Below are positions 3,811 to 21,604 of a DNA stretch of 64,000 bases, piece after piece. The notes beneath the pieces were generated by a model, which saw only the letters and a list, made by a program, of their open reading frames with translations, was not told the DNA's origin and searched no databases. The position numbers were made by a program, and so were the translations under genes. How positions within the stretch are numbered: position 1 is the first letter of the stretch; each line of letters opens with the position of its first letter. Source of the stretch: a virus; the IMG/VR virus record IMGVR_UViG_3300031215_000009, positions 1 through 64,000 of that record. One strand, written 5' to 3'.

Positions 3811-6800
3811 ATGGCAAATATAAGCATAAAAGAACTATTCGGTTCAGATACAATTACAGCATTAACTGAAAAAATTAATTATAATTTTGACCAATTAATA
3901 TTGGCTGGAGGAGGACCAGAAGGACCAATTGGACCAACAGGTAACAATGGAGTTGCAGGACCAGATGGACTTAGAGGTTCACAATGGTTTGGAGAATCAG
4001 GTGCCACTGGTACTATAAATCAACCAACAGATGGTACTTTTAGAGAAAATGATTTTAAATTAAACACTAATGGAGATGTTGTATATTATAACAATAATAT
4101 ATGGAATTCTGCTGGAATTAATCTTACAGGGCCTGCAGGACCAACAGGTTCATCAGGAGATGGTTCTATTAAAATTTTAGCTGGTAAGAATGAATTCCAT
4201 CCTACTTGGAATAATCAATTTGTACCAGATTATCAACAATTACAAACTTATTTAGCAACAAACTTTTTAAACGACAAAGATGATTATGACAATAATGCAG
4301 TTGGGTTTAATAATGCTGGACTTGATTTTATTGGATTAGGTAGAGGAAATAATTCATTAGTTCTTGGTAGATATGCTTCAATGTTTAGAAACACATCAAC
4401 AGGAGCAGGAGGTACCTTTAGTCCCGCTTCTGGTAATAAAACAATGGCAAATTTACCATCAAGTGAATCTGATGTACCTATGTTATTTATTAGTCAAAAT
4501 GACTATAAAGACCCAACAGAAGCTAAAAGTTTTAGTAATGGTATTGCTATTGGACTTACGAAATCACAAAAATCTGAAGATTATACTGATGGGAAATTTG
4601 GAGTAGATGCCCCAATGGACTATAATGATTTTGCAAATATTAGTATTGAAAATAGGTGGATGGACTTTAAGATTGAAGTCCCTGCATTATTTAGATTAAA
4701 AGGTAAAAATTCACTTAGTGAATTTAGATTAGGAACACGTACAACGAGAGCTGGTCAATCTAATGTTCAAGATATTTCAACTAAATTAGAATCTCAAATA
4801 TATACAGAAGTAAACTTAAATGATTCCTTTGTTGTTACTTTATCTAGTAATGAATCAAATCATGATTTAGGTGTAATTCACAGAGGTGAATATAATTATA
4901 CAGAAAATAAAAGAATATATAATCCTACTGAGGATTTAAGAAAGAATGTAAGTAAATCATTTGTAACACCTGGTGATACAACATTTACTGATGGACAAGC
5001 TAATGAAATTGTATTAGTTAACAGAACAATACTTGAAACTATAACAACTGGCGGCACTGCAGATAAAGGTAAAGTTAATAATAATTATATTGATTCAAAT
5101 AATTTTAATTCTAATGATAGTAAACTACCATTTAGATTAGGACAAACATTCGTAAAAGTACCAGTAGTTTCTAATGGTGGACCTTTACCAATCTCACAAA
5201 GAAATATAAGTTTACATTATCAAGGATTTGGTTATGACCAATCTATTATTTCTTATTCTGGTAATGATGATGTATTTGGTGGTGAAACTCCAATCAACAC
5301 ATCAGGTAAACCGATTGATGCTTTGTTACCTAATGATAATACTTTAGAAAATTATTTAGGTTATGATATTAAATTACCAATTACTGACCAAGAAGGTTCA
5401 AGGTCAATGTCAAGAATGGGTTTATATCCTGGTTTATTTAGAAAAGAAAAAGTAGGTGGTGCTTATGATAATGATGGTGACCCATTAGGTGAAAATAGAA
5501 AAGATGATTTCTTTGATATTGCACATAAAATGTTACCAACAGGTTCTATGGATTTATACGGAACAGTTAGATTAAGACAACAAGGTGAAACAGATAATGG
5601 AGCACAAGATGGATGGATAGCAATTAATAAGAAAGATGGAATTGTAACTTTCGAAGAACCAAATAAAGTTAATACAACTCCTACTTATGCTATTATGTCT
5701 TTTCCAGAATTAGCATCTAATAAATTTAGTTTCTATGTAAATTCTAGAAAAGATATAGGTGTAACTGGTAATGCTTTTGACAACGCTCTTAATTTTAGAT
5801 TAGGTAGTACTGGAATAGGTATGGCGTTCCCTGGTAAAGGTTCTGATGAACTTAAAGATTATTATATTTGTAACGGGGCAGTTTTAGCAGACGAAAGAGA
5901 TATTTTAATAACAGGACCATATAGTAAAATGAAAGGTATGAATGTTCATGCTAATGTTGATGTTGAAAATGGGTTTGTAAATACAGGAGATTCGATGCTT
6001 TATACTTCTAATGATAAATTCGAGGGGTTACTTGGACAAACACATAGTACATTTGAATTGGATTTAGGTGGTACAATAACATCTTATGGTATTAGTTATG
6101 GTAATGCTGATTTTAGAAGAACTTATCCTATATGGGGATATAGTGTTTTAGCACCAAAAACTGCAGAGTCAGGGTTTAGAATCGTACTACCTAATTACTT
6201 TGGTAGAGTTCAAAAAATGATATTTCCAGATTCTGATACGATTATTAGAGCAGTTGCTGGTAATACCAGTTCAAGAAGCGATTATACTTTAGGATTCCGA
6301 ACTACAGGACAACATAGGGGTGATGGATTTCAATACTATACACCAGATAAATATTATAATAGTAGATGGATGATGAAAGGAGCGTTTGAATCTTTAGGAT
6401 TTCCTTATTTAATGAAACAACATTTCCCAGATACATATCATGCACATGTTCAAAGAGACTTATATACAGAAGTTTCTGATAAGTCATTGTTGGGAGGAAC
6501 TGGGGATTGGACTTTAGAACAGGGACCTCCTACAATTGCAGGTGGTGGCTTTCCAATAACAAGGTATCCTAAATTAACTGGAGAGGGTACTTTCTCAGTA
6601 TCAAATGAACATACACACCGGGAACAACAAGTTAATTCATATTTTGAGGATAGTTTCATGACGGAGAATAATTATCAATATTTGACTTATTATAGAGATA
6701 GTAAACCACTTCATCCAAATCCAGCAGTAGATTTAACACCTAACTTTAAAGATAAACCATACACAGATAAAAATCCTTTTGGGTTTGGACAAAAATTTAT

Positions 6801-18170: not shown

Positions 18171-19190
18171 ATGAAATTCGAGACAACTCACTCGGGTAAA
18201 ATATTAACTTTAGTTGACGCTTCTGTTTTAGAAAGAAAGCAATTAAGTTTATCTTTAACCAAAAAATTAGAATATTACAATTTCTTACCTCCAGCAGTTA
18301 AGAAAAGATGGAATGGAATTGTATCTTATTTCCACAAGGATAGATTTGTCCCTGTTGGTTTGTGGCAAGAATTAAAGTACATTGCAGAAACTTTCAAATT
18401 CCCATTAGAAATAACAGGACTTGGAGAAGCAATATTCTACAAAGATGTAACAAGAGATGAATTTCAAGATTGGGTAGATGATAAGTTTTTCGGTGCCGTT
18501 AATTCTAAAGGTGATGATTTTATTCCAAGAAAATATCAAGTTGATACTGCATACGCAATCTTAACTAATAAAATATCAGTTAGTGAATTAACAACAGCTG
18601 CAGGGAAATCTTTGATTATCTTTATTTGTATTGTTTATTTTCAAGAAACTGGTTTAGGAAAGAAATTCTTAATGATTGTACCATCTATTGATTTAGTAAT
18701 ACAAGCTTATGAAGATTTTAATGAATATAATAGTTTTTTATTAGAAGATAATAGATTTCCATTGAATATCAAACAAATTCATGGGGGAGAAAAGAAAGAC
18801 TTTATTGCATCACAAAATATACATGTTAGTACGTTTCAATCACTTGCTAAATTTCAAAATCAATACTTCACTGTATTTGATACTGTTATTGTTGATGAGT
18901 GTTTACACCCAGACAGTTTAATCAAGATGGGAGATAATACAACAAAGAAAATATCAGATGTAGTAATAGGAGATGAAGTTTGGACTACTAATGATATTAC
19001 AGGAGATTTGGAAATTAATAAAGTAGATTATATTTATAAAAATCTTTCAAGTCACGAACACTTATATGAATTGGAATTAGAGGATGGTTCGATATTAGAA
19101 CTAACAGGAAATCACAAAGTAAAACTTTCTGATAAATCTTATAAGAGAGTTGATGAATTGACAGGAAGTGAAGATATAATAACTTATTAA
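18171..19190 (+). CDS. uvsW: UvsW helicase segment 1 plus split intein N-half (Cys1 at 18900)
   Basis: PRKYQ, TAAGKS Walker A, IVPS, STFQS and VIVDE, followed by CLHPDS...LTGNHKV (intein blocks A and B). Confidence 0.92.
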   Translation: MKFETTHSGKILTLVDASVLERKQLSLSLTKKLEYYNFLPPAVKKRWNGIVSYFHKDRFVPVGLWQELKYIAETFKFPLEITGLGEAIFYKDVTRDEFQDWVDDKFFGAVNSKGDDFIPRKYQVDTAYAILTNKISVSELTTAAGKSLIIFICIVYFQETGLGKKFLMIVPSIDLVIQAYEDFNEYNSFLLEDNRFPLNIKQIHGGEKKDFIASQNIHVSTFQSLAKFQNQYFTVFDTVIVDECLHPDSLIKMGDNTTKKISDVVIGDEVWTTNDITGDLEINKVDYIYKNLSSHEHLYELELEDGSILELTGNHKVKLSDKSYKRVDELTGSEDIITY

Positions 19191-19197
19191 ATAACCT

Positions 19198-19473
19198 ATA
19201 AAAAGTTTACAAGAAATTATAAATGAACAAACAGAAGCTATTCATCAAGATACTGGGATAGAAGAAGGACAACGCAAAGATGTTGATGAAAAAGTAGAAA
19301 AGAAGAATCAACAGAATATAGATAAGTTCAAAGGTTTAGAAGTTTACTTAAAAGAAAATGACTACAAATTCCATTTAATAGATGAAGACTATTTTAGTGT
19401 TCAAGATTATTCTTCTTTGGAAAACCAACCAAATAAAAAATTACTTAAAACCAGACTAAAAGCATTTATATGA
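19198..19473 (+). pseudogene. ATG-less open frame between the intein halves, probable endonuclease remnant
   Basis: About 90 open codons. NIDKFKGLEVYLKENDYKFHLIDEDYF resembles the end of TnsA-like PD-(D/E)xK nucleases. The stop overlaps the IntC start (ATGA). Confidence 0.45.
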
Positions 19474-20273
19474 AAATAAAGAAAATAACAAAAAAGAAAT
19501 ATAAAGGTGATGTTTATAATCTTAGAATAGATAGTGAAGATGGAAACAATCATAATTACTTTGCTAACGATATTAATGTATCGAATTGTCATAGAACTAA
19601 GTCAAACACTATTAGAGAATGTATTAGTAAGTGTGTAAATGTAGAAAGACGTTTCGGATTAACAGGAACAACTCCAAAACAAGGTACTTTAGATAGTTTA
19701 ACACTACAAGCATATCTTGGTCCCAAGGTAATAGAAGTTAAAGCAAAAGAATTACAAGACAAAGGAGATATTGCAGAAGTTGATATAGCAATTGTTGAAT
19801 TGATTTACCCTGAAGAAATTCAAAAACGATTTGATGATATTAAAAAGAGTATGACAGGTGAAGACAAAGGAAAACTTCTTAAAATAGAACAAGATTTTAT
19901 TATTAAGTACATTCCTAGAGTTGAATTAATTTCAAAAGTCATTTCTAAAGTTCAAAAAAACCAATTAGTGTTGTTTCACAGACAAGCTTATGGTAAACAA
20001 CTTAAAAAGTACTTAGAAGAAAATACAGATAAAGAAATATATTTTATTTATGGTGAAACTAAGAAAGATGATAGAGCTGAGATTAAAAGATTGATGGAAC
20101 ATGATGTTATTGAAAAGGAAATAGATGCTTTTCGATTTGATTCAGAAGGTAATAGTTATGAAATATCACACAATGAGTATATTAGATTAGTAAATGGTAA
20201 ATCTATAAAGGTGTCAAATTTAAGTGAAAATGATGATATTGATTTGAAAAGTATATCTAAATTTAAAGTTTGA
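19470..20273 (+). CDS. uvsW: Split intein C-half (39 aa) plus UvsW segment 2, ending in a degenerate Hint-like tail
   Basis: VYNL...HNYFANDINVSN|CH restores DECH. GLTGT motif III, LVLF...G and IYGETKKDDR follow. Confidence 0.9.
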   Translation: MKIKKITKKKYKGDVYNLRIDSEDGNNHNYFANDINVSNCHRTKSNTIRECISKCVNVERRFGLTGTTPKQGTLDSLTLQAYLGPKVIEVKAKELQDKGDIAEVDIAIVELIYPEEIQKRFDDIKKSMTGEDKGKLLKIEQDFIIKYIPRVELISKVISKVQKNQLVLFHRQAYGKQLKKYLEENTDKEIYFIYGETKKDDRAEIKRLMEHDVIEKEIDAFRFDSEGNSYEISHNEYIRLVNGKSIKVSNLSENDDIDLKSISKFKV

Positions 20274-20318
20274 ATCACAACTGGAGTAAATATATAAAAT
20301 ATATAAAATAGATATATT

Positions 20319-21260
20319 ATGAAAAATGATTTACTTAAATGTTTCCAAGAAAAACATGGAACTCCAGATAATGTAAATAAATTAAATGAATATGTTGATT
20401 TCCTCCTGACATATAAGTTAAATGAAACTGAATATACTGAAAATCATCATATATTAGATAGGGCATCATTCCCAGAATTTGAAAAAGAAGAATGGAATAT
20501 TATAACATTAGACTATAAAGACCATATTAAAGTACATGAAATGTTGTTTGAAGATTATAATATTAGAAGATACCAAAGAACTCTTACTTTCAAAGGAGTG
20601 AAAAAAGATTATAAGTTACTTTCTAATGCAGCAAAGAAAGGATGGACTAAATTTAAAAACAACAAAGTAAAATATGATTTATTTTGTTTACGTAGAAGTG
20701 TAATAATGAAAACACTTTCGTCAGATGAACAATCAAGAAGGGGTAAATTATTTTGGGATAATTTATCAAGTGATGAATTAGAAAAATGGAAAATGAAATG
20801 TAATAAAGGTAGAACCAACGAATCAAAAATAAAACAAAAAGAATCAATTAATATTTATTATTCTAATCCTGATAATAGGGAAAAGAAATCTAAAGAAACA
20901 AAAGACTATTGGGATTCATTAAGTGAATCTAAAAGAAATGATTTTAGAAAAAACATGAAATCTATAAATTCTAATGAAGATAAAAGAAAAGATGCAAGTG
21001 TAAAAATAAAAAATAAATGGCAAGACCCTGTTTTTCAAGAAAAAATGTCAAATAGAAAAACTAAACCAAAAAACAAATATGAATTGATATTTGAAGATGG
21101 TAATAAAGAAATAATAATTGGGTTTTCTGAAATGATAGAAAAATATAACTTAAATGCTACACTAATTAGAAAATTCTTAAATACGAAAACCAAAGTAGAA
21201 TCTAAAAGTAAACGAGAACAAGCATTAAATACAATAGGATTAATAATAAACCAAATATAA
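20319..21260 (+). CDS. Free-standing HNH homing endonuclease (Mob-type) interrupting uvsW
   Basis: ENHHIL...NIITL...DHIKVHEML followed by basic helical repeats. Confidence 0.8.
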   Translation: MKNDLLKCFQEKHGTPDNVNKLNEYVDFLLTYKLNETEYTENHHILDRASFPEFEKEEWNIITLDYKDHIKVHEMLFEDYNIRRYQRTLTFKGVKKDYKLLSNAAKKGWTKFKNNKVKYDLFCLRRSVIMKTLSSDEQSRRGKLFWDNLSSDELEKWKMKCNKGRTNESKIKQKESINIYYSNPDNREKKSKETKDYWDSLSESKRNDFRKNMKSINSNEDKRKDASVKIKNKWQDPVFQEKMSNRKTKPKNKYELIFEDGNKEIIIGFSEMIEKYNLNATLIRKFLNTKTKVESKSKREQALNTIGLIINQI

Positions 21261-21261
21261 T

Positions 21262-21604
21262 ATGGCACAAATAACAAATTTAAAACACATAAAAAAGAAA
21301 GTAGAGGCTGCAAGAGTTCTTGTAGCCTCTTATTAGGTGCGGTACGTTATCGACAGGAATTAACATAAAAAATATCCATAATATTCACTTTACTGAATCG
21401 TTTAAATCAGATGTTATTGTAAGACAGTCTATTGGTAGAGGTTTAAGACAACATAAAGATAAAGATAAATTAAGAGTTTATGATTTTGTAGATTGTCTTA
21501 ATACTGGAAAAGATAACATGTTAATGAATCATTCAAGAGTTAGACGAACAATCTACAAAGAACAACAATTTGATTATATTATCAAGAAAGTACATTTAAT
21601 TTAA
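21262..21604 (+). CDS. uvsW: UvsW C-terminal part, interrupted by 7 nt (TAGGTGC, 21334-21340); absent from the ORF track
   Basis: 21262-21333 reads MAQITNLKHIKKEVEAARVLVASY. 21341-21604 in the +1 frame reads GTLSTGINIKNIHNIHF...RQSIGRGLR...VYDFVD..., i.e. helicase motifs V and VI. Confidence 0.85.

Follow-up and report, generated by a model that had tools for sequence, protein, structure and literature searches.

The window of DNA analysed here (64,000 nucleotides, positions 1 to 64,000 of IMG/VR virus record IMGVR_UViG_3300031215_000009; about 28% GC) is the first 64 kb of an 81-kb viral contig, and the stretch is also present in Logan contigs of salt-lake metagenome runs. On its plus strand it carries a gene for a UvsW-like helicase that is divided into four reading segments, and a homing endonuclease gene of the HNH type occupies the second break. 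The helicase piece upstream of the nuclease gene ends in an extra stretch of protein, here called the tail. The piece downstream begins with a short basic extension, here called the head, and is itself interrupted, 24 codons after its start, by a short insertion that opens with a stop codon, here called the gap. We propose that these parts make up a homing cassette and that the tail descends from half of a split intein. The elements of the locus are as follows, with IntN and IntC denoting the N- and C-terminal parts of a split intein and a slash marking a junction.

18171–21604, plus strand: UvsW-like helicase gene, in four reading segments.
18171–19190, plus strand: helicase segment 1, with a genuine IntN at its end, in which Cys1 follows VIVDE and block B is TGNH; Pfam matches are Hint (E 3e-7) and Intein_splicing (E 2e-4).
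19470–20273, plus strand: helicase segment 2, made of a genuine IntC (...VSN/CHRT), the helicase middle to LMEHD, and then the tail; phrog_9690 DNA helicase, E 1e-28.
20106–20270, plus strand: the tail, a 55-residue C-terminal extension and, by profile comparison, a non-catalytic relative of the half of an IntN that runs from block B to its end.
20319–21260, plus strand: free-standing Mob-type HNH homing endonuclease gene, 313 amino acids, matching PHROG HNH and homing endonuclease families; phrog_12434, E 3e-15.
21262–21300, plus strand: the head, MAQITNLKHIKKK, a basic extension of 13 residues at the N-terminus of the downstream piece; a single nucleotide separates its ATG from the HNH stop.
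21301–21333, plus strand: native helicase codons VEAARVLVASY, the last of them the Tyr codon proposed as a take-off site.
21303–21330, plus strand: predicted 12-bp RNA hairpin with a tetraloop, ending right before the Tyr codon.
21334–21340, plus strand: the gap, a 7-nt insertion, TAGGTGC, which opens with a stop (TAG, 21334–21336) and shifts the frame by +1.
21341–21604, plus strand: last 87 helicase codons (motifs V and VI; GTLSTG...QSIGRGLR...), without a start codon of their own.

The identity of the host gene is given by six unsplit close relatives, 78–83% identical, in which the helicase is one protein of 512 residues. One such relative matches T4 UvsW (2oca) with E 1.3e-47 over residues 32–511, including motifs II, V, and VI, as expected of a UvsW-type helicase of superfamily 2, and segment 1 carries the ResIII and DEAD domains of Pfam. 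The unsplit relatives read ...LMESGTNKVLVASYGTLSTG... and have no insert at the tail site, where T4 UvsW has only ...LAENGKGIIIVASYG.... A reading of this DNA made from the letters alone, which we call the sequence-only reading, had claimed that an HNH gene occupies the second break in uvsW, that segment 2 ends with about 55 non-helicase residues, and that T4 UvsW has just a short loop at this place. All three points hold. The extra residues follow LMEHD (residue 212) and read as they were quoted. Two other points of that reading need correction. The start of segment 3, given as ...KKEVE, is in fact MAQITNLKHIKKKVE, and the break does not leave two halves, since segment 3, which from 21262 reads MAQITNLKHIKKKVEAARVLVASY, stops at the TAG after 24 codons. 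The 87 remaining codons are out of frame: after the TAG, GTLSTGINIKN...QSIGRGLR... continues in the +1 frame. Compared with the unsplit relatives, the window carries seven additional bases, TAGGTGC, between the Tyr and Gly codons. The segment 21301–21451 is unchanged in Logan contigs of two runs (X1 and X3), one of which may be the source sample, some runs having no contig cover over parts of the stretch. Therefore, the 7-nt gap is not a quirk of one assembly.

The evidence on the origin of the tail comes from a profile of 28 tails, gathered from loci with the same arrangement (see below). Its consensus, as given by the alignment tool, is ...VEYTILNFGDYEIEVKSDFxILLSNGxYKxAKDITxDDDIDDxFI.... 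Among 1.84 billion representative proteins, the profile finds 123 with E <= 1e-3, of which 27 have E <= 1e-10. When the hits are locally re-aligned, they fall into those with and those without the T/S..H residues of block B. The latter comprise 108 domain rows from 105 proteins, and 102 of these rows end no more than 25 residues from the protein C-terminus, and thus represent tails of the same kind. The remaining six rows comprise an internal copy in protein P0023, two Calx-beta rows regarded as spurious, an intein with E..H, and two from P0115. The T/S..H residues are present in 17 rows from 13 proteins, and all 13 match Pfam Intein_splicing, with E from 4e-4 to 1e-83, several of these matches being below Pfam's own cut-off. 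The library-wide E of the tail profile for these genuine inteins is 2e-7 to 9e-4. They include inteins within GyrB-like and T4-type portal proteins, as well as fragments of NrdD and PolA that bear a split IntN end, closing with ...DLTxDDDI... as the tails do. One of them, P0106, matches the solved DnaE and NrdJ-1 inteins with E 1.7e-9 and 1e-7. In the alignment, the stretch ...V-K-S-D-F-K-I-L-L-S-N-G-x-Y-K-x-A-K-D-I... of the tails lies on ...C-T-P-D-H-K-F-M-L-x-D-G-S-Y-K-E-A-K-D-L... of the inteins, and the aligned region corresponds to positions 50–93 of the 155-position Pfam model (P0098).

The tail of the window is the most divergent member of the family, with 16–35% identity to the others. 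Nonetheless, when the 940 open frames of the 81-kb genome are searched with a profile built from the 27 other tails, the window tail comes first (E 0.0013), followed by the genuine IntN that ends segment 1 (E 0.023). The likeness to the block-B-to-end part of an IntN, first noticed by eye, is thus borne out both by this leave-one-out comparison and by the reach of the profile to real inteins. Because the profile matches 13 Intein_splicing proteins, descent of the tail from the second half of a split-intein IntN, with its Hint fold, is well supported at the level of sequence comparison. The ESM Atlas model of segment 2 has a predicted template-modelling score (pTM) of 0.42. Its structural neighbours at residues 208–267 have TM scores of 0.52–0.66 over 42–53 residues, and four of their clusters have Intein_splicing members; the stretch being so short, these modelled neighbours are only a lead. 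Most neighbours of the tail in the Atlas are viral fragments, of ribonucleotide reductase, PolIII alpha, dUTPase, terminase, and PolA, and IntN-like or dead tails resembling that of the window may end many split phage proteins. A search of 50,697 cultured-phage records with the tail gave no match, and a search with the tail region in a set of 5.8 billion proteins, at near lengths, returned only the window's own protein.

None of the residues needed for protein splicing is left. Helicase residues LMEHD run directly into the tail, so that the first ~45 residues of a Hint domain, with block A and Cys/Ser1, are absent; the window tail has no Cys at all. The block-B columns hold S..E in the window, and T/S..H is found in 0 of the 28 tails. 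On the other side of the break, blocks F and G, the terminal Asn, and the +1 Cys/Ser/Thr are absent, as the 13 residues of the head lead straight into VEAARVLVASY. Because the catalytic residues are missing, the tail and head pair is incapable of splicing. The sequence-only reading was right on this, both in listing Cys/Ser1, the block-B His, and the terminal HN-nucleophile as missing and in describing an intein-derived module that cannot splice.

HNH genes commonly ride in group I introns or inteins, and the tail is Hint-related; hence, one might suppose that a group I or group II intron with the HNH gene is removed by RNA splicing, or that an unusual intein is active here, with one covalent helicase as the product. 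We consider this scarcely credible. Apart from the lack of Cys/Ser1, the block-B His, blocks F and G, and the terminal Asn with its nucleophile, which argues against any active intein, the Rfam covariance models have no match at E <= 1 between 18000 and 22000 on either strand, and an intron was rejected on this ground. Selection acts on tail and head as protein, and a stop and an ATG delimit them. Moreover, no exon junction removes both the HNH gene and the 7-nt gap and yet keeps VLVASY.

The HNH protein of the window is 28–31% identical to MobD-like and Mob-like proteins of T4-type phages. It has five relatives in a large protein set, and their alignment, used as a query, led to 64 metagenome loci. 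The helicase junction was found in 28 of the 64; the other 36 either have no junction in the DNA examined or have more distant HNH genes. The 28 loci share the order seen in the window, namely the N-part of the helicase, the HNH gene, a short segment, a stop (except in L157, which has no gap), and GT.STG..., and a homologous tail was seen where the contig covered the end of the helicase N-part. In the main clade, the short segment has the form M-A-R/K-I-I-D-K-R-K-x-I-R-E-E-G-A-T-K-V-L-V-A-S-Y. The whole layout is thereby shown to recur in 27 other loci. HNH-based scans of viral contigs gave only L009. A scan of viral contigs for the exact pattern of the gap and its context gave at least 119 stretches, and 1 of the 121 matches examined, again L009, had a helicase context. 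At two loci, L135 (1288–1917) and L137 (2435–2959), an additional open reading frame (ORF) lies between the tail and the HNH gene, that of L137 encoding 153 amino acids that resemble no recognised protein. At L164 (~5131–5250), a more distant HNH relative (32% identity) adjoins a helicase end ...ILASYGTF, with ...FSTGVSIK following in a different frame, an arrangement more like a shift of a single base within the motif than like a stop-bearing gap.

The ATG of segment 3 sits between -23 and +26 nt from the HNH stop, mostly from -8 to +5, and within 14 nt in 24 of 26 loci. No purine-rich stretch precedes it in the window or in 25 other loci. Since this ATG adjoins or overlaps the HNH stop, at 21258–21264 in the window, and lacks such a stretch upstream, the sequences suggest that translation of segment 3 is coupled to that of the nuclease gene.

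Of 29 junctions (the window and 28 of the 64 loci), 28 have a gap and one, L157, has none. The gaps are of 4 nt (six cases), 5 (two), 6 (two), 7 (fourteen), 8 (three), and 9 nt (one), and in 28 of 28 the gap opens with a stop right after the Tyr codon (TGA in 17, TAG in 7, and TAA in 4); L140 and L163 have two in-frame stops. With lengths of 4–9 nt, the downstream part falls in all three frames, and single frameshifts cannot serve every gap length. The 86–99 codons downstream form an open frame in all 25 distinct gap-bearing loci, complete in 24 and ended by the contig in 1, and the ratio of nonsynonymous to synonymous substitution rates (dN/dS) in this frame is 0.22 over 153 pairs, with a median dS of 1.6. 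It follows from the open frame and the low dN/dS that the downstream part is translated, although it has no start codon. In the window, no ATG, GTG, or TTG occurs in this fourth frame between the preceding stop and the Gly codon; in the other loci, where three-frame prints were viewed and not tabulated, no conserved start was seen for the downstream part. The codon just before Gly is a Tyr codon in 7 cases (e.g., Tyr-TGA-G-Tyr-Gly), GAC in 8, AAC or AAT in 6, TAA or TAG in 4, TGC in 2, including the window, and GTC in 1. As a landing codon, it is thus cognate Tyr in 7 of 28, NAY in 21 of 28, and UAR in 4, the near-cognate cases (NAY or UAR) beyond the 7 numbering 18. Recoding of TAG was also considered and rejected: TAG ends 9 of the 68 plus-strand ORFs of at least 100 amino acids with nothing open behind it, and there is no tRNA gene in the window.

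The tail is maintained in the same manner. Its median dN/dS is 0.21 over 209 pairs from 23 main-clade loci, with a median dS of 1.1, the window and four divergent rows being left out of this set. The tail is a protein segment under purifying selection. These figures bear on the view that the helicase is a decaying pseudogene, killed by the insertion of the nuclease gene and of the 7 nt, with the tail as chance read-through. Such a view would account for a stop and a frameshift after 24 codons and for the lack of a start in the last 87 codons. Against it, the same layout occurs in 27 other loci at synonymous saturation (a median dS above 1 speaks against their being recent copies), the downstream frames are open in all 25 loci, both dN/dS values are low, and a covarying hairpin (described next) stands at the break. 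A stop-free tail of 55 codons would arise by chance in DNA of 25% GC with a probability of ~0.005, by an estimate of our own and not by computation. The pseudogene view is largely refuted, and we hold it to be very improbable.

An RNA hairpin stands before the gap. In the window, where codons 14–23 of segment 3 encode it, its energy is -20.6 kcal/mol (z -3.8). Each gap-bearing locus that was folded has a hairpin of 10–14 bp that ends 0–1 base before the Tyr codon; the energies lie between -14 and -27 kcal/mol and the z scores between -2.9 and -5.8, none of 200 shuffles being as good in any of them. In 21 main-clade sequences, 97.4% of the cells in the hairpin alignment are standard-paired, against 88.6% in shuffles (0 of 500 as high); sliding the partner by 1–3 columns, as a control, leaves 35–58% of the cells paired. 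Four pairs are changed on both sides, and 20 cells have such a change (again, 0 of 500 shuffles as high). Because G-U pairs are common, the hairpin lies in the sense RNA. At the same place in the gap-less locus L157, there is no hairpin (-4 kcal/mol, z +0.8). That locus, on a 401-kb contig (5020–5070), reads ...KVLIASFGTLSTG... in one frame, with Phe for Tyr and other Ala and Ser codons, and it may be a variant that evades the nuclease by point changes.

Taken together, the layout suggests that the gap is probably read by a short ribosomal hop. In this proposal, the ribosome, its P site occupied by peptidyl-tRNA-Tyr, would pause when it reaches the stop. The hairpin, refolding behind the ribosome, would pull out its 3′ arm, which is still inside the ribosome; the mRNA would thereby slide by 4–9 nt, and decoding would resume at Gly to give ...VLVASY-GTLSTG.... 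As for the presence of a gap at this position, it lies within the conserved ASY/GT.STG codons and, by analogy with MobA, would destroy the nuclease's own target and so protect the genome that carries it.

We turn to the role of the tail and head. Over its last 40 residues, the tail has a net negative charge in 25 of 28 cases; two tails, that of the window among them, have a net charge of zero, and one is positive. Of 27 heads, 24 carry a net positive charge and 3 have none. The head starts with M and has 7–15 residues across loci, with 18–26 residues for segment 3 as a whole. In the "capture and collapse" association of split inteins, the extended, disordered, and anionic region of IntN meets the cationic IntC first, through electrostatics, as described in the available part of PMC11766414. 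The portion retained in the tail is this anionic capture region of IntN; what is missing is the pre-folded first half and the catalytic C-terminal strands. By this analogy, it is plausible that tail and head clasp the two helicase polypeptides. The acidic half-Hint tail and the basic head would bind electrostatically, as the fragments of a split intein do in the capture step, and would hold the two pieces together without splicing. An unsplit homologue with the module in cis, as envisaged by the sequence-only reading, does occur, in that P0023 has a tail-like stretch (residues ~212–280) and a short strand in line, within another loop of a UvsW-like helicase. From this copy, it follows that the two ends of the module can adjoin in a loop. 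The loop is a different one, however, and the copy is a singleton: a search for cis forms with P0023 residues 195–290 gave only P0023 itself, which, lying on a contig of 2.4 kb, may have arisen as an artefact of assembly.

A clasp is a reasonable proposal with a serious rival, in which the helicase pieces bind each other unaided and the head serves the hop. The tails would then be intein-derived and yet not glue. The two pieces would rejoin through their own RecA-domain interface; the tail would be used otherwise, for solubility or for contact with a partner protein or DNA; and the head would be a read-through signal, as a nascent peptide and as hairpin-coding sequence. According to the portion of a preprint on MobA available to us (bioRxiv 10.1101/2022.08.31.505936), the pieces of nrdA split by MobE bind each other without their extensions, and the N-terminal extension in T4 is critical for bypassing. 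In addition, part of segment 3, codons 14–23, encodes the hairpin, and the head varies widely in sequence and length between clades. Set against these points are the conservation of the tail as protein (dN/dS 0.21), its constant pairing with a basic head, its correspondence to the disordered anionic capture region (in PMC11766414, as far as available), and the one cis fusion. On balance, we think this rival unlikely, while giving it much more weight than the pseudogene or splicing explanations.

Our preferred reading is that 20106–21340 is a homing cassette like the gene 39/mobA/gene 60 element of T4, set in a UvsW-like helicase gene and combining a tail clasp, target protection, and a hop; we give it a probability of about 0.6. 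Its five parts would be a C-terminal extension, a Mob-type HNH gene, a basic N-terminal extension, an RNA hairpin, and a 7-nt stop-bearing gap placed inside the conserved ASY/GT.STG motif, 24 codons into the downstream piece. Judged from sequence, the tail would then belong to a larger whole, namely a MobA-like cassette for homing that sits in a helicase gene and has a predicted natural stop-hop of 4–9 nt.

Several observations weigh against this reading. Taken singly, none of the 28 tails matches a Pfam intein model at E <= 5, and the tail profile, run against PDB sequences, finds no solved intein directly, the best match being the AXH domain of Ataxin-1 at E 0.13. No intact intein was found at the helicase site of the tail that would support decay in place. 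Only 7 of the 28 gaps have a cognate landing codon, that of the window being UGC, and for the window alone a +1 frameshift giving Y-R-C-G is possible. The head is too short for a homology test: it was compared with IntC starts by eye, its 7–15 residues being below the length for any statistic. Its conservation could serve the hop, through the nascent peptide or the hairpin codons, and not clasping, so that the short head may be conserved for read-through of the gap. Finally, the extensions of the MobE-split nrdA are described in the same preprint, in the part available, as needed for activity and dispensable for mutual binding.

Two kinds of weak match were set aside. Single tails match Pfam Y_Y_Y in 12 of 28 cases (best E 0.007), which was judged spurious, and the AXH match is read as a shared short motif, since AXH is also weakly matched by the genuine IntN P0129. 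As to how the tail came to its present site, tails of the same type are found at a second helicase site, after an IxGG...K stretch at residue ~200–250, as C-terminal tails in P0109, P0113, P0123, P0124, P0126, and P0127. Given these, and the absence of an intact intein at the first site, it is more likely that the half-Hint pieces travelled with the cassette than that they decayed in place.

If the clasp is real, it is a natural and minimal heterodimerising module made from the capture half of a split intein and free of its chemistry, which would be of interest for protein engineering. Such a clasp would, in addition, account for the ability of free-standing nucleases to enter essential genes at mid-length. 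For recoding, 28 natural variants are available in this family, which differ in gap length, frame, and landing codon and have a simple 5′ hairpin in common; they form a ready mutational series for the question of how mRNA refolding behind the ribosome drives sliding. For annotation, split genes with the layout of this cassette will be called truncated genes or pseudogenes unless the layout is recognised.

The genuine split intein of the same helicase gene has a feature of its own. Between its IntN and IntC, at 19195–19470 on the plus strand, lies an open frame of 92 codons with no ATG, GTG, or TTG start. The frame is +1 relative to segments 1 and 2, and its terminal ATGA overlaps the start of segment 2. 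Among protein families, it has just a weak match to the PHROG helicase loader family (E 0.058), and it may be a relic of an endonuclease gene or of another small gene.

How does this cassette compare with known systems? The sequence-only reading held that it would be a different way of tolerating a homing endonuclease. That is not so in general terms, as conserved C- and N-terminal extensions on nuclease-split genes have already been described for MobA (topoisomerase) of T4 and for MobE (nrdA) in bioRxiv 10.1101/2022.08.31.505936. What appears to be new, to the extent of the literature available to us, is the Hint origin of such extensions, the helicase cassette, and the proposed natural stop-hop of 4–9 nt. 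Our literature search found no report of these three; the supplementary alignments of the MobA preprint were outside its scope and may bear on the T4 extension. In its available part, the preprint draws no link between the extensions and Hint, its four mentions of "intein" being about other elements.

The nrdA of Aeromonas phage Aeh1, split by MobE into "genes in pieces", resembles the present case in the insertion of a Mob HNH gene and in the formation of a working complex by two extended polypeptides. It differs in that a Hint relationship and a recoding gap are not reported for it in the summary given by the MobA preprint. The fractured genes described in PMC2677866 (available part) have an N-part with a Hint-type C-terminal piece, an endonuclease gene, and a C-part with a short N-terminal piece. 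The helicase gene studied here also holds a genuine split intein, at DE/CH, in whose 279-nt spacer no endonuclease ORF was found. In contrast to fractured genes, the cassette has no Cys1, no block-B Thr/His, no blocks F and G, and no Asn with a nucleophile, and thus no trans-splicing. Furthermore, its nuclease is of the Mob type, and a separate target-site gap is present.

With respect to the hop, a review (PMC5009743, available part) states that shorter counterparts of gene 60 had long been presumed and that synthetic stop-hops exist; no natural in-frame stop-hop was known in 2016. In the synthetic cases, a take-off codon, a stop, and a landing codon lie within 9 nt, and the arrangement Tyr-stop-N-Tyr is found exactly in 7 of the 28 loci. 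The synthetic hops are artificial and of low efficiency, whereas the family of the window adds a hairpin and a conserved nascent peptide. For the forward bypassing of gene 60, pairing of the mRNA that leaves the ribosome has been proposed as the driver, according to the accessible portion of bioRxiv 10.1101/2024.12.09.627546.

The closest parallel is the gene 39/mobA/gene 60 element of T4, as described in the available part of the MobA preprint. In both systems, an essential gene of replication or repair is interrupted by a Mob-type HNH gene; a conserved C-terminal extension (~44 amino acids in T4 and 55 in the window) is accompanied by an N-terminal extension; and an untranslated insert that begins with a stop lies in a conserved motif, a few dozen codons into the downstream piece. 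The T4 insert protects against nicking by MobA. There are differences as well. The host gene in T4 encodes a topoisomerase and the bypass covers 50 nt; in the family of the window, the gene encodes a UvsW-like helicase and the gap has 4–9 nt. The hairpin of this family lies 5′ of the take-off codon and excludes that codon. The take-off codon is Gly in T4 and Tyr here, where the landing codons are often near-cognate only. The T4 head has 44–45 residues, compared with 7–15 in the family of the window, which is known from sequence alone.

When scored with the tail profile, the C-terminal extension of T4 gp39 (L194; NC_000866, 3778–3930, minus strand) obtains 12.1 bits, a score reached by 0 of 2000 shuffles (maximum 9.7). 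With a block-B profile made from the rows of the genuine inteins, it obtains 4.2 bits, reached by 9 of 2000 shuffles. From these scores, the classic T4 element may be of the same lineage, and the tails of the T4 topoisomerase may derive from Hint. It is tempting to propose a widespread class of Mob-HNH cassettes, each with two portable repair devices: a dead capture half of a split intein, by which the two host polypeptides would be rejoined unspliced, and a hairpin-driven stop-hop of 4–9 nt, through which the target motif of the nuclease would be interrupted in DNA and made whole in protein. In such a class, the gp39 and gp60 extensions of T4 would be of the same Hint-derived family; we regard this extension of the proposal as tentative and doubtful as it stands. 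If it is correct, the split in the T4 topoisomerase, the splits at two sites in helicases, and perhaps others share one origin.

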